In this document: positions 9,109 through 33,147 of the stretch, one piece after another
Numbering within the stretch: position 1 is the stretch's first letter
Layout: every line of letters begins with the position of its first letter
NCBI GenBank assembly: GCA_902514875.1
Contig: CABXSY010000003.1
Location: 31,139-95,138, forward strand
Origin: an uncultured Alphaproteobacteria bacterium
GTDB taxonomy: Bacteria; Pseudomonadota; Alphaproteobacteria; HIMB59; GCA-002718135
Length of the DNA: 64,000 bases
Direction: 5' to 3'
Notes under the pieces: generated by a model
What the model was told of the DNA's origin: nothing
What the model saw: the letters and a program-made list of their open reading frames with translations, nothing else
Database searches by the model: none
Program-made: the position numbers and the translations under genes

Positions 9109-9845
9109 TGAATAAAATTAATTTAGAAAATAGAGTCGCAATTGTCACTGGTGGGGCCCAAGGGTTTGGGTTAGCAATTACAAAAAGATTTATAGAGTCA
9201 GGTGCAAGAGTATTAATATGGGACAAAGATATAGAATATTTAAATAAAGTTGATTTAAAAAATACTCAAAAAATCGAAGTTGATGTGTCAAATTATAAAA
9301 GTGTAGAGAAAGCTTTTGCCGAAAGTCTTAAGTATGAAAATAAAATTGATATTTTAGTAAATAATGCAGGAATAGCTGGACCAAACTTTAAGACATGGGA
9401 TTATCCACTTGAGGAATGGCAAAAAGTTATAGACATAGATTTAAGCGGAGTATTTTATTGCTGTAAAACTATAGTTCCTCATTTTATTAAACATAATTAT
9501 GGACGTATTGTTAATATCTCCTCGATAGCTGGTAAGGAAGGTAATCCAAATGCAATGCCTTATAGTGCAGCAAAAGCAGGAGTTATCGCTCTTACTAAAT
9601 CTTTAGGAAAAGAATTAGCTGAAAATAATATTTCAGTGAATTGTGTTACCCCTGCACCTGCTAAGACACGTATTTTTGATCAAATTACGCAAGAACATAT
9701 TGATTATATGTTATCAAAAATTCCTAGAAATAGATTTGTGTTAGTTGAAGAACTAGCTTCTTTAGTTGCATGGATGTCTTCCGAAGAAAATTCTTATACC
9801 ACAGGATCAACTTTTGATTTGAGTGGAGGGCGAGCTACCTATTAA
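9108..9845 (+). CDS. SDR oxidoreductase, 2-keto-3-deoxy-L-rhamnonate dehydrogenase (LRA5)-like
   Basis: TGGAQGFG, NNAG, YSAAK; AGKEGNPNA and C-terminal FDLSGGRATY typical of the LRA5 subgroup. Confidence 0.75.
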   Translation: MNKINLENRVAIVTGGAQGFGLAITKRFIESGARVLIWDKDIEYLNKVDLKNTQKIEVDVSNYKSVEKAFAESLKYENKIDILVNNAGIAGPNFKTWDYPLEEWQKVIDIDLSGVFYCCKTIVPHFIKHNYGRIVNISSIAGKEGNPNAMPYSAAKAGVIALTKSLGKELAENNISVNCVTPAPAKTRIFDQITQEHIDYMLSKIPRNRFVLVEELASLVAWMSSEENSYTTGSTFDLSGGRATY

Positions 9846-10819
9846 TTTTTTCTTCTTTGTATAAGAGCGTAAACTGTAACGGCAACCGTAATCATGAGCC
9901 CATTGATAAATTTTACATAAAAACCAGATAAGCCTAGAGCAACTATGCCCGATTCCAATGAACCAATAATTAATACTCCAATAAAGGTTCCAAAAATAGT
10001 ACCTTTACCACCAAAGACAGAAGTACCTCCAACAAATACAGCAGCTAATGTCGTTAACATTAAACCCTCACCTTGTGTAGGCCAGAAATATAACATTTCA
10101 TACATAGTAAAAATTCCTGCTAAAGCTGAGAAAAATCCTAACTGAACAAACGCAATAATTTTTACATTATCAACATTAATCCCCATCATTTGAGCACTGG
10201 CTTTATTGTCACCTACAAAGTGGATGTGATTTCCAAATTTATGGTATCGATAAACCCATTGCATTAATCCAGTTAATACAATGAACCAAATAAATTGCAT
10301 TGGAATTTTTCCAAATAATTTTTCAACAAATATCATATGATGCCATGTATCATCTGCTACATCTACGATTGCGATACCACTACCTTGGGAAATGACATTA
10401 ACTAGTCCACGCCAAAAAAATAATGTTCCTATGGTGGCAACTATCGAAGGTATACCAATTTTGGTAACAAGTAGCCCGTTAACTAAACCAGCAAACATTC
10501 CAAGTGAAGTTGCTAATATAAAAGCAATAAAAACATTACCATCTGTTGAAGTCATAACCATTCCAAATATGAGTGAGGTAATCCCAACTATAGATGGAAA
10601 TGATAAGTCTATTTCACCAAGCGTTACAACAAATGTTGCTGAAATGGCAATAATTCCAAAAAATGGCATTGATTGCATAAAAGCTCGATAAATAGGAAAT
10701 CTTGTAAATACATGAGGTGCGCCCAAGAAATAAATTAAGAATAGTACAAGGGCAATAATAGTTATACTTATCTCAAGCTTATGGGTTTTTACAAAATAAC
10801 TATTTAATATACTACTCAT
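9842..10819 (-). CDS. Sugar ABC transporter permease (RbsC/CUT2 family)
   Basis: GEIDLSF, IPSIVATIG, GDNKASAQMMGIN, AAVFVGGTS-GGKG motifs. Confidence 0.92.
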   Translation of the reverse strand: MSSILNSYFVKTHKLEISITIIALVLFLIYFLGAPHVFTRFPIYRAFMQSMPFFGIIAISATFVVTLGEIDLSFPSIVGITSLIFGMVMTSTDGNVFIAFILATSLGMFAGLVNGLLVTKIGIPSIVATIGTLFFWRGLVNVISQGSGIAIVDVADDTWHHMIFVEKLFGKIPMQFIWFIVLTGLMQWVYRYHKFGNHIHFVGDNKASAQMMGINVDNVKIIAFVQLGFFSALAGIFTMYEMLYFWPTQGEGLMLTTLAAVFVGGTSVFGGKGTIFGTFIGVLIIGSLESGIVALGLSGFYVKFINGLMITVAVTVYALIQRRKN

Positions 10820-11587
10820 TTACTCTTCGACTTTTATTTTTCCAGATTCATGGAGTTGAATCATTTTTTGTACAAGTTCTTCTCTAGAGATATCTTCTTT
10901 ATTAAATTCTCCAACAACTTCACCTCTATCTAAAATAATAAATCTATCTGCAGCACCATATACATGAATTATATTATGATCGATAAAAATTGCTGATTTG
11001 TTTTCTTTTTTTAAACCTTTAACAAAATTAAGAACTTTTTCAGTTTCTTGAATAGATAAACCCATAGTTGGTTCATCTAGAACGATTAAATCAGAATTAA
11101 AATATAAGGATCTTCCAAATGCAACACCTTGTTTTTCTCCGCCAGATAACCCCATTACTTGAGAGTCAACTGTTATAGCTTTTGATGTAAATCCTATATA
11201 ATCACGAAGAATTTTCTCAGCTTCTTTTCTTTGTTTTTTTATATCTAAAAAACCAAATGAGTTTGTAATTTCTCTTCCCGCAAATATGTTTCTAAATAAT
11301 TCTTGTTGATCACACAATGCTCTTTCTTGATAAACTGCTTCAATTCCCATTTTTCTTGATTGAGCAACTGATTTAATTTTTACTTCTTCTTGTTTAAAAA
11401 AAACTTTTCCTGAGTTTGGACTATGAACTCCCGTTATGACTTTGATAAGTGTTGATTTTCCAGCTCCATTATCTCCTATTAAAGCAACAACTTCACCTTT
11501 ATTTATTTTAATATTTACATTTTTTAAAACTTTTACATTTCCAAAGTTTTTATAAATATTTTCTAATTTTAATAGTTCTTCTGTCAT
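10820..11587 (-). CDS. Sugar ABC transporter ATP-binding protein (single domain)
   Basis: GDNGAGKST Walker A, LSGGEKQ, LDEPT. Confidence 0.95.
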   Translation of the reverse strand: MTEELLKLENIYKNFGNVKVLKNVNIKINKGEVVALIGDNGAGKSTLIKVITGVHSPNSGKVFFKQEEVKIKSVAQSRKMGIEAVYQERALCDQQELFRNIFAGREITNSFGFLDIKKQRKEAEKILRDYIGFTSKAITVDSQVMGLSGGEKQGVAFGRSLYFNSDLIVLDEPTMGLSIQETEKVLNFVKGLKKENKSAIFIDHNIIHVYGAADRFIILDRGEVVGEFNKEDISREELVQKMIQLHESGKIKVEE

Positions 11588-11596
11588 AAAAAAATT

Positions 11597-11623
11597 AACC
11601 TGCCTTATAAAATAAGGCAGGTT
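11597..11623 (-). terminator. Stem-loop between the SBP and ATPase genes (partial terminator or mRNA stabiliser)
   Basis: AACCTGCCTTAT-AAA-ATAAGGCAGGTT followed on the minus strand by a T-run. Confidence 0.7.
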
Positions 11624-11637
11624 TTTAATATTTTAAT

Positions 11638-12618
11638 TTATCTGATTTGTACGGCTGCTAATGGAGCAACAGCTTCCACGTTACCAGCTGTAACAAATGC
11701 AGCACCAGTATCCATTGCTAATCCAGCCATTCCATATTTTGTACTTAGGAATAATTGAATAATTGGCATGTATCCCTGAATAAATGGTTGCTGATCAATT
11801 ACTACATCGATGTAACCAGAATTTATTCCATCAACAATTGGAGCTGATAAGTCGAATCCAGCACCACATACTTCTTCAGTACCGTGACCAGCAGCTTTCA
11901 TGTAAGTTGGTAAACTTGCAGTTAATCCACCATGATCAGTAATTGCCATTTTGATATCAGGATTTGCACTATATGTTGCAACATACATAGGAGTTCCCTG
12001 TGATGCATCTGAATTTACGTTATCAGGAATTTCTTGATAAACAACTTCTACACCAGCTGCTTCAACTCCAGCTATTGCACCTTTAGTTCTTTCTCCTCTA
12101 TTTGGCATACTTGCAAGACCCCAGATAAAAGCTTTATCTCCAGCTTGTAGACCACAAACTTCAACAGCTTTTTTACCTAGATTAAATCCAGCATCAAATA
12201 AATCTGCTCCTGCATAACCAAATCCTTCAGTTTTATACTCTGACTCAAGGTCAGGAAGAGGTGTGTTCATAGTAGTAATAACTATTCCCATTTCTCTAGC
12301 TTCTTGAATGATAGGTCTCATTGCAGCGTCACCTGGGAAACCATAGATAGCAATTCCATCAGGCTGTAAAGCAACAGCTTCTTTGAATTGTTTAATCATG
12401 ATTTCTGAATTCCATTGTGACCAGTAATAGTCTACATCACAACCAGTATGTTCAGCAGCAGCTACTGCACCATTATAAACAATAGTTCCAAATGGACCAC
12501 CTTCAGGTCCGCCTGGGAAAAATATAAATTTCTTATCACAGCTATAATCATTTTTTGCTACTGCTGAAGTAGATGCAAAAGCAAAAAATAGAGCAATGAT
12601 TGCAAAGATTTTTTTCAT
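11638..12618 (-). CDS. Sugar/cyclitol ABC transporter substrate-binding protein (periplasmic binding protein type I)
   Basis: Signal peptide; PDGIAI, AGFDL, IDQQPFIQGY motifs; RBS GGAGG. Confidence 0.9.
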   Translation of the reverse strand: MKKIFAIIALFFAFASTSAVAKNDYSCDKKFIFFPGGPEGGPFGTIVYNGAVAAAEHTGCDVDYYWSQWNSEIMIKQFKEAVALQPDGIAIYGFPGDAAMRPIIQEAREMGIVITTMNTPLPDLESEYKTEGFGYAGADLFDAGFNLGKKAVEVCGLQAGDKAFIWGLASMPNRGERTKGAIAGVEAAGVEVVYQEIPDNVNSDASQGTPMYVATYSANPDIKMAITDHGGLTASLPTYMKAAGHGTEEVCGAGFDLSAPIVDGINSGYIDVVIDQQPFIQGYMPIIQLFLSTKYGMAGLAMDTGAAFVTAGNVEAVAPLAAVQIR

Positions 12619-12808
12619 AATTCCTCCAAATAATTTATGACTCAGTTTATAAGTAAATAAATCAATAATACAATTAAATAAAAGTATTAGAGACTTTATT
12701 ATAAATTAAATTCAAGTTACCTTGAGTAGATAAAATAGTCGCACTTAATTACTAATTTATAGCAATTTTTATATTTATAAGATTATTAAAAAGTGTTATT
12801 TTTTAATT

Positions 12809-13795
12809 ATGGAAGTAGATTTAGGGAAATGGTATCGAGCAAATATAGATAAAAAAGAATTCAAGAAGTTATGCAAGAAATCTGATTGGCAGGGTTTTAA
12901 GCATATGATTATTTATTTTTCATCTCTATTTGTTTTTGGATATCTTGCATATGTCACATGGGGCACTTGGTGGTCTTTATTATTTTTTATAATATACGGA
13001 AATATTTGGGGATGTAGTGATGCTATTTGGCATGAAACTGGTCACAGAACAGCTTTTAAATCTAAATTCTGGAATGATTTCTTTTATTACATTGCAAGTT
13101 TCATGGATAATTTCGAGCCTATAAGATGGAGATATTCTCATTATCATCATCACACTTATACCCAATTTAATGATCCTGTGGATTTTGAAATACATGTAAA
13201 AAAACCAACTGATTTAATTGTATTTTTCTCACACTACATTCCGTTCTCCGGTTTTGTTTTTTTTAAAAATTCTCTTCAATGGGAAACTATAAAACATGCA
13301 TTTGGTGTGACTACTGATGTAATGAAAGTTTGTATTCCTGAAAACGAAAGATGGAAATGTAGATTATCCGCTTGGAGTCATCTCTCTATTTGGATTATAA
13401 GTATTGCTTCTTCAGTATACTTTCAAAGCTGGCTTCCAGTTCTATTCGTTTTATTACCTAATTTTTATGGAAAGACACTCGTAATGCTAATGGGCCTTAC
13501 TCAACACGCAGGACTTAGAGAAGATAAAAGAGATCACAGGTATACAACCAGAACAGTATATTTAAATCCAGTTTTAAGTTTTTTATATTGGCATATGGAA
13601 TATCATGTTGAGCACCATATGTTCCCTCAAGTTCCTTCACATAATTTACCTAAACTACATGCTATGATTAAAGATCAATTACCACCTGCTAGAAAAGGAC
13701 TTATAGGGGCTTACAAAGAAATTGTTCCAGCACTAATAAAACAAGCAAAAAATCCAGACTATCAAATCCCATTGTCAGTTCCAAGTAACGCCTAA
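12809..13795 (+). CDS. mocD: Membrane di-iron fatty acid desaturase-family oxygenase, MocD-like
   Basis: His boxes HETGH, HYHHH, TQHAGL, HVEHH; adjacent to reductase and Rieske ferredoxin as in mocDEF. Confidence 0.8.
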   Translation: MEVDLGKWYRANIDKKEFKKLCKKSDWQGFKHMIIYFSSLFVFGYLAYVTWGTWWSLLFFIIYGNIWGCSDAIWHETGHRTAFKSKFWNDFFYYIASFMDNFEPIRWRYSHYHHHTYTQFNDPVDFEIHVKKPTDLIVFFSHYIPFSGFVFFKNSLQWETIKHAFGVTTDVMKVCIPENERWKCRLSAWSHLSIWIISIASSVYFQSWLPVLFVLLPNFYGKTLVMLMGLTQHAGLREDKRDHRYTTRTVYLNPVLSFLYWHMEYHVEHHMFPQVPSHNLPKLHAMIKDQLPPARKGLIGAYKEIVPALIKQAKNPDYQIPLSVPSNA

Positions 13796-13800
13796 ATTAA

Positions 13801-15030
13801 ATGAAAAATAACATTATAATTTTAGGCGGCGGTCAAGCTGCAATCTATGCTGCTAGAGAGGTTAGAAAAAATGATACAGATTCAAATATAAAAATATTAA
13901 GTGAAGAAAATTTATTACCATATGAAAGACCTCCTTTATCTAAAGATTTTTTGTTAAATAAAAAAAATGAGGATGATCTTTATTTTCATTCTAGCGACGT
14001 ACTAAAAAATGAAAATATAGATTTTGAAAATGTATTAATTAATAAAGTTGATTTTGAAAATAAAAAACTTTTTACAAAAAATGATGATGTTTACTCTTAT
14101 AATAGCCTATTAATTTCAACAGGTTCTGAAAATAAAAAGCTTAGTCTAGATAAAAATTTAAATGATGATATTTATTATTTAAGAAATTTAGAAGAAGCCA
14201 AAACTATTAAAGAAAAAATTTCAAATAAAAATAAAATAACTATTATTGGAGGTGGTTTCATTGGCTTAGAAATAGCTTCATCTATATCTCAGCTTAAAAA
14301 AAAAGTAACAGTTATCGAAATCGGTAATCAACTCATGGGAAGAATTATACCTAAACAAATTGCTGACCTGGTTCAAAAAACTCACATAGAGCATGGTAAT
14401 GATATAATATTAAATAAACAGATAGAAAAAATAAGTAAAAAAAATGATATTTATGAAATTTTATTAAATGATAATTCTTTAATAGAAACAGAATTTATAA
14501 TTGCTGGTATAGGATCAACTCCTTCTATAAAATTATTTGAAAATACAAATTTAAAACTTGATAATGGTATAGTAACCAATCAATATTGTGAAACTTCCAT
14601 TAAAGATGTTTATGCAGCAGGTGACGTATCTAATTTTTATCATCCATTATATGAAAGAAATATAAGACTTGAGTCTTATCAACATGCACAAAATCATGGA
14701 ATTTGTGCTGGAAAAAATATTGCTGGAGTAAAAACAGAATACTCTTCAGTTCCTTGGATGTGGTCTGATCAATTTAATTTAAATCTTCAACTGACCGGTA
14801 TTTGTGATGATTATGATGAAATGGTTGAAAGAGGTAATAATATTAATAATGGTGTAATTTATTTTTTTCTAAAAAATAAAATAATAAAAGGCGCATGTGG
14901 TTTAGGAATTGTAGGAAAAGTGGGTCGTGACATTAGAATAACTTCTAAATTAAGTGAGAAAAATACCATAGTAGATACACAAATTCTCTCAGATGAAACT
15001 CAAAAATTAAATAAACTTATACAAAAATAA
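13801..15030 (+). CDS. mocF: FAD/NAD(P)H ferredoxin reductase (MocF-like)
   Basis: GGGQAA, YERPPLSK, GGGFIGLE, AAGD, PWMWSDQ. Confidence 0.88.
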   Translation: MKNNIIILGGGQAAIYAAREVRKNDTDSNIKILSEENLLPYERPPLSKDFLLNKKNEDDLYFHSSDVLKNENIDFENVLINKVDFENKKLFTKNDDVYSYNSLLISTGSENKKLSLDKNLNDDIYYLRNLEEAKTIKEKISNKNKITIIGGGFIGLEIASSISQLKKKVTVIEIGNQLMGRIIPKQIADLVQKTHIEHGNDIILNKQIEKISKKNDIYEILLNDNSLIETEFIIAGIGSTPSIKLFENTNLKLDNGIVTNQYCETSIKDVYAAGDVSNFYHPLYERNIRLESYQHAQNHGICAGKNIAGVKTEYSSVPWMWSDQFNLNLQLTGICDDYDEMVERGNNINNGVIYFFLKNKIIKGACGLGIVGKVGRDIRITSKLSEKNTIVDTQILSDETQKLNKLIQK

Positions 15031-15082
15031 TAATTTGATTATTTAATATTTATTTTCAGAAAATAGACATTATATACAAATT

Positions 15083-15400
15083 ATGTCTGAAGAAAATTGG
15101 ATAGAAGTAGGCTCAACAGATAGTATTGAAGAAGAAGATCTTATTAGATTTGATCATCAAGATAAAACTTTTTGCGTATACAGATTAACAGATGGTTTTT
15201 ATGCAACTGATGGGATGTGTACACATGAAACAGTACATCTTGAAGATGGCCTGGTTATGGATGATGAAATCGAATGTCCAATGCATCAAGGTATTTTTAA
15301 TATTAAGTCTGGAGAAGCATTAAGCCCACCAGCTTGTGAGGATTTAAAAACATACCCAGTTAAAGTTGATAATGATAAAATATTCATTAAGATAGATTAA
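15083..15400 (+). CDS. mocE: Rieske [2Fe-2S] ferredoxin (MocE family)
   Basis: CTHE...CPMHQG (CxH/CxxH). Confidence 0.9.
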   Translation: MSEENWIEVGSTDSIEEEDLIRFDHQDKTFCVYRLTDGFYATDGMCTHETVHLEDGLVMDDEIECPMHQGIFNIKSGEALSPPACEDLKTYPVKVDNDKIFIKID

Positions 15401-15419
15401 ATATTTTTTTGGAGATTTT

Positions 15420-16247
15420 ATGAGTAGAAAAAAACTTACAGTTTACGATTATTTGCAATGCAAAGGTAAAAGACAATTAAGTGTTATGTTTGTACACAAT
15501 GCTGACGAAGCTGCAGCAGCTGAAGAAGCAGGTATTGACATGATATGTACTTCGCATGATGCTCCACAATTTGGTATTTATAATTCTTTTGATGAGCTGA
15601 AAAGAATTCGTGAGGCTGCACCAACTTGCTTTATGCAGTCCGGAGGTGCAGTAAGAGTAGCTTCTGAGTATGAAGCAATGAAGCTTTCACACAAGTATTT
15701 AGATATAGGCGCAGATGTAATCTATGGAGGTAATTGGAGTTACAAATGGATTAGAGCATTAAGAGACGAATATGTACCAATTAATAGTCATGTTGGATTA
15801 GTTCCAGGAAATGCCACTTGGATTGGTGGATTTGTTGCTCAAGGCAAAACTGCTGATAAAGCAATTAGAATTTTAGAACATACCCTTGAGTTACAAGAAG
15901 CAGGAGCTATTGGAGTTGAGCTCGAAGTAGTTCCACCGAAAGTTGCTGAAGTGATTACAAAAAAAGTTAATATTATGACTCTCTCAATGGGAAGTGGCTC
16001 TGGATGTGACGGACAATATTTATTTGCTAATGATGTTCTGGGATATACTCAGGGAAAAATTCCAAGACATGCACGTATTTATAGAGATTTTAAAAAAGAA
16101 TTTGCAAAACTACAAACTGAAAGAGTTAATGCATTCAAAGAGTTTCATGATGATACAGTAAACAAAAAATTTAATGATCCTAAAATCACAGTTAATATCG
16201 ATGATGGTGAATTTGACAAATTTTTAAAGCTTTCAGAAAAATTTTGA
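15420..16247 (+). CDS. Divergent PanB-like (ketopantoate hydroxymethyltransferase family) protein 1
   Basis: HVGLVP..W.GGF..QGKT, LEVVP, MGSGSGCDGQ, D.LG, PRHA match the PanB C-terminal half; N-terminal GDS and D-x-PF motifs absent. Confidence 0.8.
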   Translation: MSRKKLTVYDYLQCKGKRQLSVMFVHNADEAAAAEEAGIDMICTSHDAPQFGIYNSFDELKRIREAAPTCFMQSGGAVRVASEYEAMKLSHKYLDIGADVIYGGNWSYKWIRALRDEYVPINSHVGLVPGNATWIGGFVAQGKTADKAIRILEHTLELQEAGAIGVELEVVPPKVAEVITKKVNIMTLSMGSGSGCDGQYLFANDVLGYTQGKIPRHARIYRDFKKEFAKLQTERVNAFKEFHDDTVNKKFNDPKITVNIDDGEFDKFLKLSEKF

Positions 16248-16250
16248 TCA

Positions 16251-17264
16251 ATGTTTGCAGGCGAAGTTGATTTAAATACTTGGTATAAACCAAAAATAGA
16301 TAAGAAAAAGTTAAAGGAACTTTCTAAGAGATCTGATTCAAAAGGTTTAATTGATATATCTGTATTTATTGTTGCTCTACTATTAAGCGGATATCTTTGT
16401 GTTGTAAGTTGGGGTACTTTTTGGTCAATTCCTGCTCTTCTACTTTATGGAAACATTTTCTATTGTAAAATCATTAGCATTCAACATGAAACAAATCACG
16501 AAACATATTTTAAAACAAGAGTGTTAAATAAATTTTTTTATCATATAACTTCTTTGCTTGGTGGTTTTGAAGCAGTTCGATGGAAGTGGAGTCATTTTCA
16601 TCACCATACCTACACAATTTTTACTCATGAGGAAGTATATGATTATGAAAATAATAGTCCTAAACCTACAGAACCTATTAGATTTCTTTTAAATTTTTTA
16701 CCTCTGGGTCCTTTAATTAATATTCAAAAAATAAGACATTTTACACATTTTGAAATAATCAAACATTCATTTGGAATAATTACTGCTGTTGTAAATATTA
16801 CTGTACCTGAAAAAGAGATAAAAAAAATTATTAATAGCTCAAGATTATATGTTGTTTTTTGGCTAATCATTATTGCATCCTCAATTCTTTTTAAAACCTG
16901 GTTGCCAATAATAATGTTAATTCTGCCTCCATTTTATGGAAATACTATTTTAATGATTTGTGGAATGACACAACATGCAGGATTAGCTGACAATGTTAAA
17001 GATCATAGAAAAAGTACAAGAACAGTAATCATGAATCCTTTTTTCAGTTTTTTGTATTCGAATATGGAATATCATATTGAGCATCACATCTTTCCAAAAA
17101 TTCCTTGTCATAACCTCAAAGCTTTTCACCAAGTAGTTAAAGATCAAATGCCAACTCCAAGAAAAGGTGTAATAAATGCTTACAAAGAAATTATTCCTGC
17201 TATTTTTAAACAAGCAAAAGATAAAAATTATTATTTGAATGTTGAGGTACCAAGTACTAACTAG
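16251..17264 (+). CDS. Membrane di-iron fatty acid desaturase-family oxygenase, MocD-like paralogue 2
   Basis: HETNH, HFHHH, TQHAGL, HIEHH; colinear with 12809-13795. Confidence 0.82.
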   Translation: MFAGEVDLNTWYKPKIDKKKLKELSKRSDSKGLIDISVFIVALLLSGYLCVVSWGTFWSIPALLLYGNIFYCKIISIQHETNHETYFKTRVLNKFFYHITSLLGGFEAVRWKWSHFHHHTYTIFTHEEVYDYENNSPKPTEPIRFLLNFLPLGPLINIQKIRHFTHFEIIKHSFGIITAVVNITVPEKEIKKIINSSRLYVVFWLIIIASSILFKTWLPIIMLILPPFYGNTILMICGMTQHAGLADNVKDHRKSTRTVIMNPFFSFLYSNMEYHIEHHIFPKIPCHNLKAFHQVVKDQMPTPRKGVINAYKEIIPAIFKQAKDKNYYLNVEVPSTN

Positions 17265-17266
17265 TT

Positions 17267-18100
17267 ATGAGAAAAAAAATAACTGTTAAGGACTTACAAA
17301 GTTTTAAAGGTAAAAAAAAATTAGTTTGTATATTAATTAAAAACGAAGAAGAAGCATTAGCAGCTGATAAGGTTGGTTTTGAGATGCTTGCAACTGGTTT
17401 AGCAGGTAAGTACAAAAATGATGATGACCATCCTAATTTTGATCAATTAGTTAAAATGAGAGAGGCTGCTCCTACTGCATTCATGCACTGTGGCGCTCCC
17501 GACAGTTTTATACCAACAATTGATGAAGCTAAAAAATTTTCATTTAAAATATTAGAGCATGGTTTTGATATGCTTTATTGTAATACACGTTTTGATTTAA
17601 TAGGAGAATTATTCAAAGAAGGAATTCCTTGTTTAGGCCATGTTGGTCTGGTCCCACCCAAACGAACTTGGACTGGAGGATTTGTAGCAGTAGGCAAAAC
17701 AGCAAAAGAAGCTATGTGGATTTATGATCAGTGTTTAAAAATTCAAGATGCTGGAGGGGTTGCTATAGAAATGGAGTGTGTGCCATATAAAATTGCAGAG
17801 GTTATTTCAAAAAAAGTGGAACCAACAGTTATGTCAATGGGAAGTGGGTCTGGATGCGACGTGGAATACGTTTTCGGATGCGACATATTAGGAACTACGA
17901 AGGGTAAAATACCTCGACATGCAAAAAAATATAGGGATTTTCAACAAGAATTTGCAAGACTTCAAAAAGAAAGAGAGTCTGCCTTTAAAGAATTTTATGA
18001 TGATGTTCATACTGGTGCTTTTCCTGAGAAAAAAAATATTGTAGAAATTAATGAAAATGAACTAGATATATTTTTAAATAAATTAGAAAAAAGAGGATAG
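17267..18100 (+). CDS. Divergent PanB-like protein 2
   Basis: GHVGLVPP, MECVP, MGSGSGCD, PRHA; paralogue of 15420-16247. Confidence 0.8.
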   Translation: MRKKITVKDLQSFKGKKKLVCILIKNEEEALAADKVGFEMLATGLAGKYKNDDDHPNFDQLVKMREAAPTAFMHCGAPDSFIPTIDEAKKFSFKILEHGFDMLYCNTRFDLIGELFKEGIPCLGHVGLVPPKRTWTGGFVAVGKTAKEAMWIYDQCLKIQDAGGVAIEMECVPYKIAEVISKKVEPTVMSMGSGSGCDVEYVFGCDILGTTKGKIPRHAKKYRDFQQEFARLQKERESAFKEFYDDVHTGAFPEKKNIVEINENELDIFLNKLEKRG

Positions 18101-18102
18101 TT

Positions 18103-19110
18103 GTGAATAGAGACAAATTAAATGATGAAAATTATGGTACAAGAGACAAAAGAGGTCATTGGAAACCTTTTGGTACTATAAGTATAAATCCTCCTAAAGA
18201 AATTTTTTATAATCCGATAAGATTATTAAAATATTTTTTTAAGTTTCCAGGAATATTTTTTCCATGGACATTTGTTTTTGGAGCAATAACAGTAGCAACC
18301 TATCTATTTTTAACACCTTCCTTAGAAAGCATGAAGACTTTCGAAGTTGGTTGGATATCTTATATTTTTTTGAGAAATGCAGCAATTATACTTTTATGGA
18401 CAGGTTTTTTTCATCTAAGATTAAAAACACAAGGAACTTCATTTAAGTATAATCCACGACCTTTGGAAAAAAACAATTCGACATTTTTGTTCAACGATCA
18501 AACAAAAGATAATTTATTTTATACTTTTTGTAGCGCAATTCCACTTTGGACAGCTTATGAAGTAATTACGTTTTGGGCATTTGCTAATCAAATAATACCA
18601 TATGTAAGTTGGGAAGCTTACCCCATTTATTGTTGTTTTATGTTTTTCTTAGTTCCTTTTATACGTGATGCACATTTTTATTTAACTCATAGATTATTAC
18701 ATTGGGCACCACTTTATAAAATAGCTCATAAAGTACATCATCGTAACACTAATACAGGCGCTTGGTCCGGAATGTCTATGCATCCAATTGAGCACATACT
18801 ATATTTTTCTGGTATACTCATTCACTGGATTATTCCTTCACATCCTCTAGTGGCAATGTATCATGTCTTCCATGCTGGTTTGGCACCTACTCCAGGTCAT
18901 ACAGGATATGAAAAGATGACTTTTAAAAATGGTGTAACAATTCCAACTGGTGATTATATGCATTATATTCATCATAAATATTTTGAATGTAATTACTCTG
19001 GTGGAAATACAAGCTTCCTGGATAAACTAATGGGCACTTTTCATGATGGGTCTGAAGATGCAACAAAAGAAGTGATGGCTCGTATTAAAGATAAAGCTCA
19101 TTATCTTTAA
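18103..19110 (+). CDS. Sterol desaturase / fatty acid hydroxylase superfamily di-iron protein
   Basis: HFYLTHRLLH, HKVHH, HPIE, GHTG, HYIHH...NY motifs; GTG start. Confidence 0.88.
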   Translation: MNRDKLNDENYGTRDKRGHWKPFGTISINPPKEIFYNPIRLLKYFFKFPGIFFPWTFVFGAITVATYLFLTPSLESMKTFEVGWISYIFLRNAAIILLWTGFFHLRLKTQGTSFKYNPRPLEKNNSTFLFNDQTKDNLFYTFCSAIPLWTAYEVITFWAFANQIIPYVSWEAYPIYCCFMFFLVPFIRDAHFYLTHRLLHWAPLYKIAHKVHHRNTNTGAWSGMSMHPIEHILYFSGILIHWIIPSHPLVAMYHVFHAGLAPTPGHTGYEKMTFKNGVTIPTGDYMHYIHHKYFECNYSGGNTSFLDKLMGTFHDGSEDATKEVMARIKDKAHYL

Positions 19111-19154
19111 ACTTATCTTCATAAATTTTTAATTTTATTATATTGATCTTATAT

Positions 19155-20030
19155 ATGAGTAAGGTTGAAATATTTAAAGATGTAAAAAATAGCTTAGGCG
19201 AAGGCATTACATGGTCGCCACTTAATAGTTGTATATATTGGTTAGACATAATGCCAAAATCTGTTTTGTTTAAAATTGATTTAAATTCTAACAAATTAGA
19301 AACTTTTGATTTACCCGAATTTGTTACAGCGTCTTCGATAATATCTAATAATGAAATTGCTTTAGTATCAAACAATGGTGTAAACAAATTTGATTTTAAT
19401 ACCAATAGTTATGAAAGAATTATTGATGTAGAAAAAGATATTCCAACAAACAGGTCTAATGATGGTGCATCTGATGCTAATGGGAGACTTTGGTTTGGAA
19501 CAATGCAAAATAATTTTAATAAAGATGGAAGTGCTAAATCTTTAGATACTAAATCTGGGAGTTTATACTGTCTATCAGGTAATCAATTAAATATTGTTGA
19601 AAAAAATCTTGGCATACCTAATACGTTTGTATGGAGTCCAGATAATACAAAATTTTATTTTGCAGATACAATAGAAGGCTCATTACTTGAATATAAATTC
19701 AACCTAGATGAAGGTATTTTATCAGATAAAAAAATTTTTTTTAATTTTGATAGAGGTGCTCCAGATGGATCAACTATTGATAGTGATGGTTTTATTTGGA
19801 ATTGTCGTTGGGGTGGATCGTGTGTTGTAAAAATTGATCCAAAAGGCAGGGTTGATCAAATTTACGAGCTACCTGTTGAAAATGTAACAAATTGTGTTTT
19901 TGGTGGAAATGATCTCAAAACTCTATTTATTACTACTGCTAATAATTCAGATAAAAATAAATATGATGGCAGTTTATTTGCATTAAATGTAAATACCCCT
20001 GGTATTGAAGATAATAAATTTAAAATTTGA
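19155..20030 (+). CDS. SMP-30/gluconolactonase family sugar lactonase
   Basis: LGEGITW, RSNDG, IPNTFVWSPD, GAPDGS, TNCVFGG; ATG 19155 preferred over TTG 19143. Confidence 0.9.
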   Translation: MSKVEIFKDVKNSLGEGITWSPLNSCIYWLDIMPKSVLFKIDLNSNKLETFDLPEFVTASSIISNNEIALVSNNGVNKFDFNTNSYERIIDVEKDIPTNRSNDGASDANGRLWFGTMQNNFNKDGSAKSLDTKSGSLYCLSGNQLNIVEKNLGIPNTFVWSPDNTKFYFADTIEGSLLEYKFNLDEGILSDKKIFFNFDRGAPDGSTIDSDGFIWNCRWGGSCVVKIDPKGRVDQIYELPVENVTNCVFGGNDLKTLFITTANNSDKNKYDGSLFALNVNTPGIEDNKFKI

Positions 20031-20061
20031 TTTTTTACTTTAATTAGATAAGACTTTTTTG

Positions 20062-21795
20062 ATGAATAAAAAAAATAAATTTAGATCTTCTGATTGGTAT
20101 AATTCTAAATCACATAGAAGAGATACTTTTATACATAGGGGCTGGATGAGAAATCAAGGTCACCCCAATCATTTGTTTGATGGACGTCCTGTAATTGGTA
20201 TTTGTAATACTTGGTCAGAGCTAACACCTTGTAATGGTCATTTTAGGGAGATAGCAGAGTCAGTTAAAAAAGGTGTTTATGAAGCTGGCGGTTTTCCTTT
20301 GGAATTTCCAGTCTTTTCAGCAAGTGAATCCAATTTAAGACCAACAGCTATGTTGTTTAGAAATTTAGCAAGTATGGATGTTGAAGAAGCAATAAGAGGT
20401 AATCCCATTGATGGAGTCGTATTGCTAATGGGTTGTGATAAGACTACACCTTCATTGATGATGGGAGCTGCAAGTGTTGATCTTCCTACAATTGGTGTGT
20501 CAGGTGGACCAATGCTTAATGGACATCATCAAGGAGAAATAATAGGTTCTGGCACTGGCGTTTGGAAACTTGATGCAGATTTAAATGCGGGCATAATAAC
20601 AGAAGAAGATTTTATTAATGCAGAAATTTCAATGAGTAGATCTAAAGGTAATTGTATGACAATGGGGACTGCATCAACAATGGGATCAATGGTAGAAGCA
20701 TTAGGAATGTCACTACCTGGAAATGCCGCAATACCTGCGGTTGATTCAAGAAGATATGCTTTAGCCCATATGTCTGGGAAAAGAATTGTTGAAATGGTCA
20801 AGGAAGATATAACTATGTCAAAAATTGTTACAAAAAAATCATTTGAAAATGCAATTAAGGTCAATGGAGCAATAGGCGGATCAACAAATGCAGTTATCCA
20901 TTTAGCTGCAATTGCAGGTCGAATGGAAATTGATTTAGATTTAGATGATTGGAATAAATGTGGAGATGGTATTCCAACTTTAGTAAATCTACAGCCTTCA
21001 GGAAAATACTTAATGGAAGATTTTTATTATGCAGGTGGTGTTCCAGTAGTCATAAAAAGATTAATGGAAAAAAAATTAATAGATGAAAATTCAATGACTG
21101 TTAACGGAAAAACTATAGCTGAGAATAATATAAACGCTAAATGTTGGAACAATGAAGTTATAAAAGAATTTGAAAATCCGTTAACAAAAAATGGAGGAAT
21201 TAAAATTCTAAGGGGTAATATCGCTCCAAATGGGGCAATTATTAAACCCTCAGCTGCATCACCAGAATTAATGAAACATACTGGAAGAGCGGTAGTTTTT
21301 GAAAGCGTAGAAGAGTTTCATGAAAAGATTGATGATCCTAATTTAGACGTTGATGAAAATTCAATATTAGTTTTAAAAAATTGTGGACCAAAAGGCTATC
21401 CTGGTATGGCTGAAGTCGGTAATATGCGTCTTCCGCAAAAAGTTCTTAAAAAAGGTGTTAGAGATATGATTAGAATATCTGATGCAAGAATGAGTGGAAC
21501 AGCATATGGTACAGTAATACTTCATACTGCTCCAGAAGCTGCAGTCAAAGGTCCTTTAGCAGCAGTTCAAAATGGCGATGAAATAGAAGTAGATGTTGAT
21601 CAAGGCACAATGAATTTAAAAGTGGATAATGAAACAATAAAAAATCGTCTAGAAAAATATTCACCTGTTGTTCCAGAAATCACAGGTGGTTACCAAAAAA
21701 TGTATGTAGAGCATGTTATGCAAGCTGACAAAGGAGCAGATCTAGATTTTCTAATTGGGAAAAGAGGTGCTGAAGTCAAAAGACATAGCCACTAA
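20062..21795 (+). CDS. araD: IlvD/Edd family sugar-acid dehydratase, L-arabinonate dehydratase type
   Basis: CNTWSELTPCN, GCDKTTP, CMTMGTASTM, SDARMSGT, C-terminal HSH typical of L-arabinonate/D-fuconate dehydratases. Confidence 0.85.
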   Translation: MNKKNKFRSSDWYNSKSHRRDTFIHRGWMRNQGHPNHLFDGRPVIGICNTWSELTPCNGHFREIAESVKKGVYEAGGFPLEFPVFSASESNLRPTAMLFRNLASMDVEEAIRGNPIDGVVLLMGCDKTTPSLMMGAASVDLPTIGVSGGPMLNGHHQGEIIGSGTGVWKLDADLNAGIITEEDFINAEISMSRSKGNCMTMGTASTMGSMVEALGMSLPGNAAIPAVDSRRYALAHMSGKRIVEMVKEDITMSKIVTKKSFENAIKVNGAIGGSTNAVIHLAAIAGRMEIDLDLDDWNKCGDGIPTLVNLQPSGKYLMEDFYYAGGVPVVIKRLMEKKLIDENSMTVNGKTIAENNINAKCWNNEVIKEFENPLTKNGGIKILRGNIAPNGAIIKPSAASPELMKHTGRAVVFESVEEFHEKIDDPNLDVDENSILVLKNCGPKGYPGMAEVGNMRLPQKVLKKGVRDMIRISDARMSGTAYGTVILHTAPEAAVKGPLAAVQNGDEIEVDVDQGTMNLKVDNETIKNRLEKYSPVVPEITGGYQKMYVEHVMQADKGADLDFLIGKRGAEVKRHSH

Positions 21796-21798
21796 TTA

Positions 21799-22983
21799 TT
21801 ATTGATGAATTTCAAAGTTGTCTAAATATTTTTCTGTTAACCTAATTCCTAATCCATGTTCATTTTCATCTAATTCAATAAAGCCATTCTTTGCCTGCGG
21901 TTCTCCATCAAAAATATACCAAAATAATTCATTACCAATTTCAACTGGCCAAAAAGGAAAATACTCAACAATTGGAGCATTAACAGAACTCATAGAAATA
22001 TGAAAATTATGTACTTGTCCAGCATGAGGAATAACTGGTATTTGAAATGCCTCAGCTAGAGCAGAAATTTTATGTGCTTGTGTTATTCCCCCAACTCTAT
22101 TTGTATCAAATTGCACAACATCAATTGCTTTTTTCTCTAGTAATTGTCTAAAACCAAAAAGCGTATATTCATGTTCACCCCCAGAAATAGGCGTTCTACA
22201 TGATGCTTTTAAATCAGCATAACCGTCAATATCATCTGCTATAACTGGTTCTTCTAACCAACGTAGATTTTCATTGTCGATTAATCTCATCATTCTTTTT
22301 GCATATTCAAATGTCCAACCCATGTAAACATCTGCCATTATATCAACATTACCACCTACTACTGACCTTACGGTTTTAATAAGCTCAATATTTTTGTGCA
22401 TACCTTCAGCACCATCTGTTGGTCCCCAACCAAGTCTTAATTTCATAGCTTTAAAACCTTGATCTAAATAATCTTTAGCTTCTTTTGCAAGACTATCTAA
22501 TGGCTGGCTGTATAGCTTACTTGCATAACAAGGAAGTTTTGATTTAGTCTTGCCACCTAACAATTTAAATACAGGTTGCTTTGCTGACTTTCCAAGAGCA
22601 TCCCATATTGCAATATCTACAGCACTAATAGCTGTCATTCCTATACCTTTTCTTCCCCAAGCTAATGTTTGTCGATACATTTTTTGCCATATATGTTCAT
22701 AATCCCAAATACTTTCACCAATAATTGCTGGTGTTAAATAATTATCAATTACAGATTTACATGGTTCTGGAGATAATGCTGCATTACCTAAACCTATGAA
22801 ACCATCACTTGTTTCTACTTCAACAACCAACCAACTATGAAATTTATAAGTTGTCCATCTGTCGTTTGAAATATTTTCTTGATTTACAATATCAGCAGCA
22901 TTCGTACAAAAATTTTCATGAATTTTTTGAACAGGTCCTGTCCATTTATAAACTTTGGCTTTTACATTTACAATTTTACTCAC
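21799..22983 (-). CDS. Enolase (mandelate racemase) superfamily acid-sugar dehydratase, L-lyxonate/L-rhamnonate dehydratase-like
   Basis: AISAVDIAIWD, WGPTDG, DVYMGW, WLEEP, GGEHE, PHAG; N-terminal WTGP..NFCTNA recalls the L-lyxonate dehydratase subgroup. Confidence 0.8.
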   Translation of the reverse strand: MSKIVNVKAKVYKWTGPVQKIHENFCTNAADIVNQENISNDRWTTYKFHSWLVVEVETSDGFIGLGNAALSPEPCKSVIDNYLTPAIIGESIWDYEHIWQKMYRQTLAWGRKGIGMTAISAVDIAIWDALGKSAKQPVFKLLGGKTKSKLPCYASKLYSQPLDSLAKEAKDYLDQGFKAMKLRLGWGPTDGAEGMHKNIELIKTVRSVVGGNVDIMADVYMGWTFEYAKRMMRLIDNENLRWLEEPVIADDIDGYADLKASCRTPISGGEHEYTLFGFRQLLEKKAIDVVQFDTNRVGGITQAHKISALAEAFQIPVIPHAGQVHNFHISMSSVNAPIVEYFPFWPVEIGNELFWYIFDGEPQAKNGFIELDENEHGLGIRLTEKYLDNFEIHQ

Positions 22984-31662: not shown

Positions 31663-33147
31663 ATGTTTATTGGAATTGATCTTGGAACTTCATCAATCAA
31701 AATGATTTTAATTGATCAAAATCAAAGCATTCTTGCATCCGCTAATTCAAGTCTTACTGTACAAACTCCTAAAGATGGTTTTAGTGAACAAAATCCACAA
31801 GAATGGATTAATTCAACCATGGAATGTTTCGAGGTTTTAAAGTCAAAAAAACCAAAAGAATTTTCACAAACTATTTCAATAGGAATATCCGGTCATATGC
31901 ATGGAGCTACGTTAATAGATAAAGATGGAAAGGTTATTAGACCATGTATTCTTTGGAACGATACAAGATCATATCAAGAGTGTGAAGAATTTGAAAAACA
32001 AAATTTTGATGTACGATCAATTTCAGGAAATTTAACTATGCCTGGTTTTACCGCACCAAAAATAAATTGGATAAAAAATAATGAACTAGATAATTTTAAA
32101 AAAATTTTCAAAGTCTTACTTCCTAAAGATTACTTACGATTTGTTCTTACTGGTGAATTTTTTTCGGAAATGTCAGACGCTTCTGGAACATTATGGCTAG
32201 ATATCCAAAAAAGAAAATGGTCTAATCAACTTTTATCTTGCTCATTTTTAGAAGAAAAACACATGCCAGATCTAGTGGAAGGTAATGAGCAGACAGGATT
32301 TTTAAAAAAAGATTTAAAAGAGAAATTTAATTTTAATAATAATGTTAAAGTTGTGGGTGGAGCAGGTGATAATGCTGCCGCAGCAACTGGTATGGGTATA
32401 ACAAATAAAAATCAATCATTTATATCTCTTGGCACTTCAGGTGTTTTTTTTACTCCTACTGAAAACTTTTTGAGTAATACTGGTGATGCAGTACATTCTT
32501 TTTGTCATTGTTTACCAAATAAATGGCACCTAATGTCTGTTATGTTAAGTGCGAGTAATTGTTTAGATTGGATTTGCGCTATTACCAATACTTCAATTGC
32601 TGATACTCTTAATAATGTAGAGCAATTTTATAATGATAAAAATTCTATAAAAAATTCATCATATTTTTTACCTTATTTGTCTGGAGAAAGAACTCCGCAT
32701 AATGATCCACATATAAGAGGTTCACTCCATTCTATAAAAACAACTACAAATTCAACAGATTTACAGTATGCAGTAATTGAAGGTGTAAGTTTTGGAATAT
32801 TAGATGGAGTAAATTCTATTTTGAAAGTTAATAATAACTTTGATAAAATATTTATGGTTGGAGGTGGTTCAAAAAGTTCATTTTGGATTGAATTGCTTGG
32901 AGCACTTTTAAATAGAAAGTTAAGTGTTTGTGATCAAAGCGAATTTGGTGCCGCACTTGGTGTTGCAAGATTAGCTATGTATCAGGATTCTACTATTGAT
33001 AATAAAGATAATATTATTAGTGAAATAAAAATAAGTAAAACTTATGAACCTAACGAAGATAAAATTGATCTTTTATTACAAAGGTATACAATTTGGAAAG
33101 ATTTATATAGCAGTAATAATAAAATTGCTAAAAATTTTAATTTTTAG
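31663..33147 (+). CDS. xylB: Xylulokinase (FGGY family)
   Basis: GIDLGTS, SGHMHG, LWNDTR, SDASGT, GERTPHND. Confidence 0.9.
   Translation: MFIGIDLGTSSIKMILIDQNQSILASANSSLTVQTPKDGFSEQNPQEWINSTMECFEVLKSKKPKEFSQTISIGISGHMHGATLIDKDGKVIRPCILWNDTRSYQECEEFEKQNFDVRSISGNLTMPGFTAPKINWIKNNELDNFKKIFKVLLPKDYLRFVLTGEFFSEMSDASGTLWLDIQKRKWSNQLLSCSFLEEKHMPDLVEGNEQTGFLKKDLKEKFNFNNNVKVVGGAGDNAAAATGMGITNKNQSFISLGTSGVFFTPTENFLSNTGDAVHSFCHCLPNKWHLMSVMLSASNCLDWICAITNTSIADTLNNVEQFYNDKNSIKNSSYFLPYLSGERTPHNDPHIRGSLHSIKTTTNSTDLQYAVIEGVSFGILDGVNSILKVNNNFDKIFMVGGGSKSSFWIELLGALLNRKLSVCDQSEFGAALGVARLAMYQDSTIDNKDNIISEIKISKTYEPNEDKIDLLLQRYTIWKDLYSSNNKIAKNFNF

Follow-up and report, generated by a model that had tools for sequence, protein, structure and literature searches.

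A MocDEF-type oxygenase operon with PanB-like partners in an uncultured marine alphaproteobacterium: a candidate system for the demethylation of methylated sugars

The rhizobial MocDEF proteins, to which Bahar et al. 1998 reportedly ascribed a role as an O-demethylase, are among the closest known counterparts of the system described here, an operon at positions 12809-19110 of a 64,000-nucleotide stretch (contig CABXSY010000003.1, assembly GCA_902514875.1) from an uncultured alphaproteobacterium of the HIMB59 lineage. That stretch, analysed over its whole length, is called the window below. The operon encodes an oxygenase of the MocDEF kind together with two proteins that resemble PanB (EC 2.1.2.11). 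Our reading, tentative and held at slightly less than an even balance, is that the three-component oxygenase hydroxylates the methyl groups of an imported sugar and that the PanB-like partners handle the resulting one-carbon (C1) unit, possibly on tetrahydrofolate (THF). Two papers (PMC3538637; PMC10107442) describe rhizobial mocDEF as needed to break down 3-O-methyl-scyllo-inosamine; the homologous clusters of rhizobial plasmids bear the name mocDEF, and an inositol derivative is taken to be their substrate. The word 'demethyl' is absent from the accessible text of PMC10107442. The window operon shares with rhizobial MocDEF a membrane protein of the FA_desaturase family, a Rieske ferredoxin of the MocE family and a FAD reductase, and it differs from it in having three terminal hydroxylases and two PanB-like genes. 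It differs also in its surroundings: the neighbouring periplasmic sugar-binding protein reaches 81.2 bits against the rhizopine-binding model NF052284 (cut-off 420), the mocA, mocB, mocC, mocR set was not found at the locus, and iolD gave no match above cut-off in the genome. The source assembly comprises 1.27 Mb at about 30% G+C and is 78% complete, and all absences are judged against that completeness.

Two further kinds of oxidative demethylation bear on the comparison. In marine Bacteroidota, as reported in the accessible sections of PMC6292453, PMC9400963 and PMC10033563, cytochrome P450 demethylates 6-O-methyl-D-galactose and the reaction is tied to formaldehyde detoxification. The likeness to that system, as far as those sections describe it, lies in the oxidative removal of a methyl group from a sugar, in formaldehyde as the by-product and in a genetic link to formaldehyde handling, which for the window is proposed. 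The window, unlike that system, has no P450 and relies on membrane di-iron enzymes with a Rieske ferredoxin, and the C1 sink, which there is the ribulose monophosphate pathway, would here be folate by way of the PanB-like proteins. The second precedent comes from trimethylamine N-oxide demethylase and the dimethylglycine and sarcosine dehydrogenases, in which, according to the available portion of PMC13619132, a built-in folate domain traps formaldehyde, so that the C1 unit of an oxidative demethylation is caught on THF. Eight GCV_T matches are present in the source genome; in those demethylases, however, the GcvT-type domain is fused to the enzyme, whereas here a separate protein of PanB fold, with putative folate binding, would do this work. 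For the hydroxylation itself the relevant models are AlkB, XylM and alkylglycerol monooxygenase. A small iron-sulfur protein supplies the electrons with which the His-box di-iron centre of these enzymes hydroxylates a methyl group or the alpha-carbon of an ether. The window enzymes do have the His boxes, but the model enzymes act on hydrophobic substrates, whereas the genes around the operon point to a sugar or cyclitol. A literature search, with most subscription journals and supplements outside its scope, returned no paper linking MocD-like and PanB-like genes and no function for the PanB-like protein; the original prediction had likewise stated that no characterised pathway with this gene set was known to its author. 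A paper on pinitol in a fungus and enterobacteria (PMC9788770) held nothing on MocD, and a paper on AEGEAN-169 (PMC10308909) did not mention inositol, desaturase or pantothenate.

Seven genes on the forward strand fill the operon, and open reading frames (ORFs) with the corresponding Pfam and NCBIfam domains were found at exactly the coordinates that had been predicted for them. A MocD-like membrane di-iron hydroxylase of the FA_desaturase family (hydroxylase A, 12809-13795; Pfam 114.4 bits) is followed by a MocF-like, FAD-dependent ferredoxin-NAD(P)+ reductase (13801-15030; Pyr_redox_2 194.4 bits, Reductase_C 46.6 bits), a MocE-family Rieske [2Fe-2S] ferredoxin with its Rieske domain (15083-15400), PanB-like protein 1 (15420-16247), a second MocD-like hydroxylase (hydroxylase B, 16251-17264; FA_desaturase 113.3 bits), an accessory PanB-like protein 2 (17267-18100) and a membrane di-iron enzyme of the FA_hydroxylase family (18103-19110; PF04116 71.5 bits at residues 182-312, Pfam cut-off 31). 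As also predicted, there is a single ferredoxin reductase, a single Rieske ferredoxin and two interleaved PanB-like genes, and the His boxes of the three membrane enzymes are intact. Those of hydroxylase A comprise H75/H79, H111/H114/H115 and H266/H269/H270, and in an alignment of 23 MocD-like proteins H75, H79, H111, H115, H233, H266, H269 and H270 are invariant. Hydroxylase A has no sequence match in the PDB at E values up to 1 and shares 37-43% identity with those MocD-like proteins of rhizobial and rhodobacterial origin that are encoded beside MocE ferredoxins; hydroxylase B, 46% identical to A by BLASTP, also carries the boxes. The FA_hydroxylase protein has the His motifs HFYLTH, HKVHH and HYIHH at residues 191, 209 and 287, matches no NCBIfam model and has one paralogue in the genome, on contig C6 (46% identical by BLASTP). 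The reductase is HcaD-like (296.7 bits, below the cut-off of 450), and the ferredoxin, whose Rieske ligand motif CxH...CxxH is intact at residues 46-68, stands barely above the cut-off of the MocE family model TIGR02377 (136.9 against 136.15 bits). With a FA_desaturase protein bearing three His boxes encoded beside a MocE ferredoxin and a FAD reductase, the oxygenase itself is of the known MocDEF type.

We propose that 12809-19110 forms one operon for a three-component monooxygenase that would act on a small water-soluble substrate and not on a lipid, electrons passing from NAD(P)H to the single FAD reductase, from there to the single Rieske ferredoxin of MocE type and on to the three membrane di-iron hydroxylases. 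The Pfam families FA_desaturase and FA_hydroxylase include lipid and carotenoid enzymes, and the three proteins might instead desaturate, hydroxylate or ketolate such molecules; this seems barely credible, however, as no lipid desaturase or carotenoid model was reached (the best, DesB, gave 38.6 bits against a cut-off of 500), the surroundings consist of a MocE-type ferredoxin, a reductase, a sugar transporter and sugar-acid enzymes, and lipid work would hardly call for six such genes in a genome of ~1.3 Mb, with four of the six in solute-uptake loci.

The PanB-like proteins are what sets the operon apart. Both pass the gathering cut-off (28.7 bits) of Pantoate_transf (PF02548), protein 1 with 131 bits over residues 82-251 only and protein 2 with 111.1 bits, and the two are 47-49% identical to each other. 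Against the panB equivalog model TIGR00222 (cut-off 207.55) they reach 103.8 and 85.7 bits, and across the genome the PF02548 score is 255.6 bits for the true panB and 109-133 bits for five PanB-like copies. An AF2 model of PanB-like protein 1 (pLDDT 85.3) is predicted to adopt the TIM-barrel fold of PanB; its top Foldseek matches are the PanB structures 3vav, 3ez4 and 1m3u (TM 0.75-0.81, identity 20-24%), followed by members of the isocitrate lyase/PEP mutase superfamily. Sequence matches in the PDB are limited to the C-terminal half, which is retained, and a search of the ESM Atlas gave PanB-named clusters only. In the numbering of E. coli PanB, anchored by aligning the true PanB of the genome to 1m3u, the equivalents of H136 and E181 are kept, but in the five PanB-like copies D45 is replaced by S or G, D84 by G, K112 by V, M, A or S and E114 by Y, H or M, and the KxE motif falls in a gap of the alignment against 3ez4. 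We take D45, D84 and E114 to be the Mg ligands and keto-acid site of the E. coli enzyme, K112 presumably lying in the same site. Thirty PanB-like members have an invariant set of their own, T7, E30, R64, W134, E167, E169, D197, D205 and H217.

The nearest experimental evidence comes from Rhizobium etli. According to the accessible text of Villasenor et al. 2011 (PMC3082293), a panB mutant of R. etli requires pantothenate although plasmid p42e carries a second 'panB', RHE_PE00443; this gene, constitutive or over-expressed, fails to complement the mutant, and its product keeps five of the 12 active-site residues and has no detected metal-binding domain. The stretch of p42e covered here (470000-505334) holds a single PanB-like gene, placed after mocDEF-like genes, whose product matches PanB-like protein 1 along its full length at 43% identity, and we infer that this gene is RHE_PE00443 and that it is an orthologue of the PanB-like genes. 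Because their scores lie below the cut-off, the presumed site residues are substituted, a true panB is present elsewhere in the genome and the R. etli protein does not complement, the PanB-like proteins have the PanB fold but are not PanB, and presumably not pantothenate enzymes. The label 3-methyl-2-oxobutanoate hydroxymethyltransferase and the pantothenate GO term, which PanB-like genes carry on the plasmids inspected, are thus probably wrong. The premise that PanB exchanges a hydroxymethyl unit with methylene-THF, on which the original prediction had drawn, carries over weakly, in that fold and family are shared and the four site residues are not.

The co-occurrence of the two kinds of gene was followed in a scan of one genome per species with motifs of the five PanB-like paralogues, from which 78 loci were taken; neighbouring genes were scored with hidden Markov models built from the source genome's own proteins, the distant loci being 40-47% identical. 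PanB-like relatives are found in at least 578 species genomes, with near-full-length matches in up to 253 plasmid records, and homologues are numerous in marine metagenomes. The nearest proteins are labelled 'Pelagibacteraceae bacterium' and the nearest loci belong to single-cell genomes labelled 'uncultured Alphaproteobacteria'. In 26 of the 27 close-relative loci the order reductase, ferredoxin, PanB-like protein 1 is kept, and the gene for hydroxylase A is present in every one of them whose contig reaches far enough. The remaining genes are less constant: one close-relative locus has neither hydroxylase B nor the FA_hydroxylase gene, and of the 23 loci that cover the site of PanB-like protein 2, 18 lack its gene. 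Since these other genes vary among close relatives, the core consists of MocD, reductase, ferredoxin and a PanB-like protein, and the predicted set of seven genes, although real in the window, includes two whose presence varies. PanB-like genes occur in 38 of 41 relatives of the source genome (itself included), with one to five copies each, and in all seven further loci taken from relatives of the same genus or order MocD is at most three genes away from the PanB-like gene.

Pairing extends to distant taxa. Of 50 distant loci with a called PanB-like ORF, 23 have MocD at most five genes from it, and of these 20 also have a Rieske match and 15 a reductase match; they come from Mesorhizobium, Rhizobium, Ensifer, Allorhizobium, Hoeflea, Nitratireductor, Defluviimonas, Tateyamaria and one Anaerolineales (Chloroflexi) genome. 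On R. etli p42e and on a plasmid of R. bangladeshense, a four-gene operon encodes a fatty acid desaturase family protein, a MocE ferredoxin, a FAD oxidoreductase and a protein labelled 3-methyl-2-oxobutanoate hydroxymethyltransferase, and adjoins a LacI regulator and a TIM-barrel protein; in R. etli the MocD-like gene is RHE_RS26350 and the PanB-like gene RHE_RS26335. The module is also present on pSymA of S. meliloti and pSMED01 of S. medicae. Of ten ORFs close to the rhizobial modules, six have no Pfam match, and some may have been called in a wrong frame of this high-GC DNA. A quick maximum-likelihood tree of 57 rows groups 20 PanB-like proteins, all of them MocD-adjacent, in one clade (SH-aLRT 96); the two copies of the window sit on deeper branches of uncertain placement. 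Because MocD-like genes are few per genome, chance adjacency should be about 1 percent by our own estimate, made without a computed control. With the gene order kept in close relatives and the pairing found in distant taxa, the arrangement of the operon is not due to chance and the pairing of MocD-like with PanB-like genes, which had been proposed as a check on the prediction, is real and old. The refuting condition set there, a lack of co-occurrence in other genomes, thus does not hold. A DUF4432 protein (303.4 bits in L080) is encoded beside the module of MocD, ferredoxin and PanB-like protein in Tateyamaria and Mesorhizobium; its gene immediately precedes MocD in L085 and L088 and immediately follows the PanB-like gene in L080, with GFO dehydrogenases and ABC transporter genes near.

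The setting of the operon points to sugars; its tight co-directional packing, the divergent sugar ABC transporter and the lactonase and dehydratase genes downstream had been noted in the original prediction. From the ORF list and the Pfam and NCBIfam matches, nine co-directional genes (12809-21795) follow each other with gaps of 5, 52, 19, 3, 2, 2, 32 and 28 bases, the last two leading into a lactonase of the SMP-30/gluconolactonase family (19143-20030, forward; PF08450 236.4 bits) and an IlvD/Edd-family sugar-acid dehydratase (20059-21795, forward; NF004784 916.8 bits, cut-off 539) that comes near L-arabinonate dehydratase (NF009559 836.9 bits, under the cut-off of 882). On the reverse strand lie the genes of the CUT2 transporter, namely a permease (9842-10819; BPD_transp_2 114.6 bits), an ATPase (10820-11587; ABC_tran 103.1 bits) and the sugar-binding protein (11638-12618; Peripla_BP_4 105.6 bits). 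Farther downstream are an enolase-superfamily dehydratase, with L-rhamnonate dehydratase as its best match (235.8 bits, below the cut-off), a PdxA-like dehydrogenase, an Amidohydro_2 lactonase-like protein, a rhamnose-mutarotase-like protein, a GFO/IDH/MocA dehydrogenase and a PhyH dioxygenase; a xylulokinase at 31663-33147 (TIGR01312 524.5 bits against a cut-off of 380.25) is the sole neighbour in the window to pass an equivalog cut-off. A scan for promoter-like sites (44 observed, 54.7 expected) and terminator-like sites (2 observed, 3.5 expected) did not delimit the ends of the operon.

The substrate would most likely be a methylated or otherwise O-alkylated sugar taken up by the divergent CUT2 transporter; that it belongs to the sugars or cyclitols is somewhat probable on this genomic context, and that the chemistry is a demethylation stands about evenly balanced. 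The hydroxylases would oxidise a methyl group of the sugar to hydroxymethyl, and the freed sugar would pass through lactone and aldonate to keto-deoxy-aldonate by means of the lactonase, the dehydratase and neighbouring genes. The Pfam and NCBIfam scans showed no obvious keto-deoxy-aldonate aldolase in the operon, a gap that the PanB-like proteins might fill if they were aldolases, or served another sugar-acid step, and worked separately from the oxygenases. Their fold belongs with the isocitrate lyase/PEP mutase superfamily, which has lyases acting on keto acids, and PanB-like genes stand together with IlvD-type dehydratases in some marine loci (L043, L036). Against such a role, which we regard as very unlikely, the rhizobial and rhodobacterial PanB-like modules carry MocD, MocE and usually MocF but no lactonase or dehydratase, and the putative Mg/keto-acid site is substituted.

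As to the kind of carbohydrate, the cyclitol link that had been suggested holds in other bacteria, through rhizobial mocDEF and a plasmid module of Marivivens that has no reductase gene and abuts a sugar ABC transporter, iolG, iolC and iolD. In the source genome a sugar (aldose) fits better than a cyclitol, because iolD was not found and the operon runs into sugar-acid enzymes; judged from the neighbours, it is perhaps a methylated deoxy-hexose or pentose. Five rhizobial or rhodobacterial genomes that carry the MocD/PanB-like module were searched for a rhizopine-binding protein, and none has one above cut-off; in the eight genomes that do have one, among the 201 of the family of the Ensifer adhaerens locus L087 (that of G001), no MocD-like or PanB-like gene was seen in the flanks of ~3 to 10 kb on each side.

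PanB-like genes also stand beside oxygenases of other classes. They are paired with PhyH on two contigs of the source genome (C2 and C6) and in L064, L084 and L126, and with the FA_hydroxylase family in L043, L076, L081 and L087. In four loci of a second family of the same order (L120-L123, from G230, G231, G239 and G235) a single pair of MocD-like and PanB-like genes follows a gene for a 140-residue membrane protein without a family match. Beyond this small gene L120 has, divergent and two genes from the PanB-like gene, a Rieske oxygenase of GbcA-like type (163.9 bits, cut-off 670); L121-L123 have ORFs of the same length at the corresponding positions, only those of L120 having been scored. 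Because the neighbours span MocD-like, FA_hydroxylase, PhyH and GbcA-like classes, the role of the PanB-like protein points to the products of oxygenases and not to one substrate scaffold, and hydroxylation of a methyl group is something that these classes can share. In L124 (6970-10793, G220) the genes encode, in this order, a MocD-like protein, a flavodoxin (CysJ-type FMN domain) that may serve as another electron donor, an aldehyde dehydrogenase and a PanB-like protein, followed by a CUT2 transporter, ThuA and GFO.

The setting of L120-L123 looks more like methylated-amine metabolism than sugar use, and the window system might likewise hydroxylate or N-demethylate a solute other than a carbohydrate, for instance an amino acid or a methylated amine, with the sugar genes as unrelated neighbours. 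The GbcA-like oxygenase and the glutamine-synthetase-like gene that adjoins the PanB-like gene in L120 would suit this, as would weak matches of the MocD-like proteins to the arginine hydroxylase GntB (31.9 and 43.6 bits, cut-off 380). It is nevertheless quite unlikely for the window, where the sugar transporter is divergent from the operon, the lactonase and sugar-acid dehydratase follow it at such short gaps and the layout is kept in nearly all close-relative loci; the other MocD-like paralogues of the genome are likewise found in sugar loci.

The genome as a whole holds six MocD-like genes, the five PanB-like genes with the one true panB, and two FA_hydroxylase genes. The reductase and MocE-type ferredoxin of the operon are the only copies found, the sole other BLASTP match to the reductase being 24% identical (E 2.6e-8). 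With one reductase and one ferredoxin for six MocD-like genes, the electron chain of the operon may therefore serve hydroxylases encoded at other loci. Four more MocD-like paralogues are located on contigs C16 (L013:8281-9291 and 16415-17413), C38 (L014:267-1250) and C23 (L015:404-1423); three of the four lie in solute-uptake loci with CUT2 ABC transporters, aldehyde dehydrogenase, ThuA, GFO/IDH/MocA dehydrogenases or PhyH. All the PanB-like genes stand at most two genes from an oxygenase, within carbohydrate loci. Contig C2 (L016:4835-9314) carries a cluster of GH4, PhyH, GH4 and PanB-like genes next to a gene of the tryptophan-halogenase family; the cluster is kept in four single-cell genomes (L065, L069, L078, L084), and the PanB-like proteins of such clusters form a clade of their own (SH-aLRT 100). 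On contig C6 (L017:7542-10045) a tandem PanB-like pair lies by PhyH, BNR-repeat (sialidase-like) proteins, an MFS transporter and a SBP_bac_1 ABC transporter.

What the PanB-like proteins do with the C1 unit is the least secure part of the proposal. The two TIM-barrel proteins, lacking the putative keto-acid/Mg site, would take the hydroxymethyl or formaldehyde unit and most plausibly pass it to THF. Given their descent from a methylene-THF-dependent hydroxymethyltransferase and their varied oxygenase neighbours, PanB-derived proteins without a keto-acid site would be reasonable candidates for a C1 acceptor; transfer to folate as such is doubtful, and that they form a new PanB-derived family of stand-alone, folate-dependent acceptors of C1 units from di-iron, 2-oxoglutarate and Rieske demethylases is somewhat unlikely. 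The genome has the folate C1 machinery FTHFS and FolD in addition to the GCV_T-domain matches, and no glutathione-dependent formaldehyde dehydrogenase was found in it. PanB chemistry is the reversible addition of a hydroxymethyl group next to a keto group, and the PanB-like proteins might run it in reverse as C-C lyases: a C-methyl branch of a sugar or cyclitol would be hydroxylated, a neighbouring keto group made by a dehydrogenase and the hydroxymethyl removed by retro-aldol cleavage. The retained H136 and E181 equivalents and the new invariants E30, R64, W134, E167 and H217 would fit such catalysis, GFO/IDH/MocA dehydrogenases often flank the module, and an essential catalytic step would explain why the gene is present in all 20 members of the MocD-adjacent clade. 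We consider it unlikely, as the presumed Mg-ligand positions that would bind and polarise a keto acid are substituted, plants and seawater contain far less of C-methyl sugars and cyclitols than of their O-methyl counterparts, and the PhyH and GbcA-like neighbours suit generic C1 handling as well or better.

Several observations weigh against demethylation of a sugar with capture of its methyl group by the PanB-like proteins. Each step is a proposal drawn from genes and genomic context, and the retro-aldol role just described fits the chemistry of the family about as well. No GcvT or FolD homologue was found near a PanB-like gene in 96 loci scanned with five GcvT-domain proteins and FolD as queries (FTHFS and one GcvT ORF being left out), apart from one match ~16 kb away on R. 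etli p42e, so that the folate link comes down to distant homology with PanB. The association of the genes is also loose in places: PanB-like protein 2 is present in just five of the 23 close-relative loci that span its site, most relatives have hydroxylase B without a PanB-like neighbour, four of the six MocD-like genes in the source genome have no adjoining PanB-like gene, and 20 of the 50 distant PanB-like genes, as labelled on the tree, have no recognised oxygenase nearby. A clade of seven actinobacterial PanB-like proteins has a housekeeping-like setting with no oxygenase in view. The neighbourhood, moreover, does not name the sugar: none of the adjoining catabolic genes reaches an equivalog cut-off in NCBIfam and the nearest solved chains of the binding protein, though sugar-binding proteins, match at E 2.5e-14 or weaker, with no close solved relative among them. 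The second-family pair lies near the glutamine-synthetase-like gene and the GbcA-like oxygenase and away from sugar genes, and the substrate class may therefore differ between loci. The actinobacterial clade (L050, L054, L055, L056, L060, L061 and L062, all Actinomycetota) has as neighbours an acyl-CoA dehydrogenase, an alkyl-sulfatase-like metallo-beta-lactamase, a radical SAM protein, a BldD-like regulator and an RsmE-like methyltransferase; a Chloroflexi context examined alongside showed no oxygenase either. On balance the interpretation originally offered is partly supported: the anatomy and the co-occurrence hold, and the chemistry remains conjectural.

Contigs from RNA libraries (four marine runs from two studies, at most three samples), which do not in themselves prove transcription or a single transcript, lend weak support to expression of the operon in marine samples. 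They cover 22-27 of 30 bins of positions 11000-22000 at 92% identity or more and bridge the junctions of reductase with ferredoxin, ferredoxin with PanB-like protein 1, PanB-like protein 1 with hydroxylase B, hydroxylase B with PanB-like protein 2, PanB-like protein 2 with the FA_hydroxylase gene, and the latter with the lactonase. Summed contig depth, which is unfit for ranking genes, was up to 2458 over the binding-protein gene (11734-12467) in run X2 and 0-81 across the seven operon genes.

What is new here is the conserved PanB-like partner, the layout with several hydroxylases and the occurrence among sugar-acid genes of a streamlined marine bacterium. Methylated sugars form a sizeable, poorly degradable share of marine dissolved organic matter. 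Among the demethylation routes in the literature found, as far as the accessible text of those papers goes, the only one for sugars is the P450 of polysaccharide-degrading Bacteroidota. If the proposal is true, the carbon of methylated sugars would have a new sink in oligotrophs that are free-living and very abundant, by a di-iron route driven by ferredoxin, and streamlined marine bacteria, with up to five PanB-like copies per ~1.3-Mb genome, could harvest sugar methyl groups as methylene-THF and be spared toxic formaldehyde. Rhizobia could then do likewise with the O-methyl-inositols of plants, and their four-gene module offers a genetically tractable route to the function of MocDEF-type oxygenases and PanB-like proteins, including the use of O-methyl-inositols from legumes.

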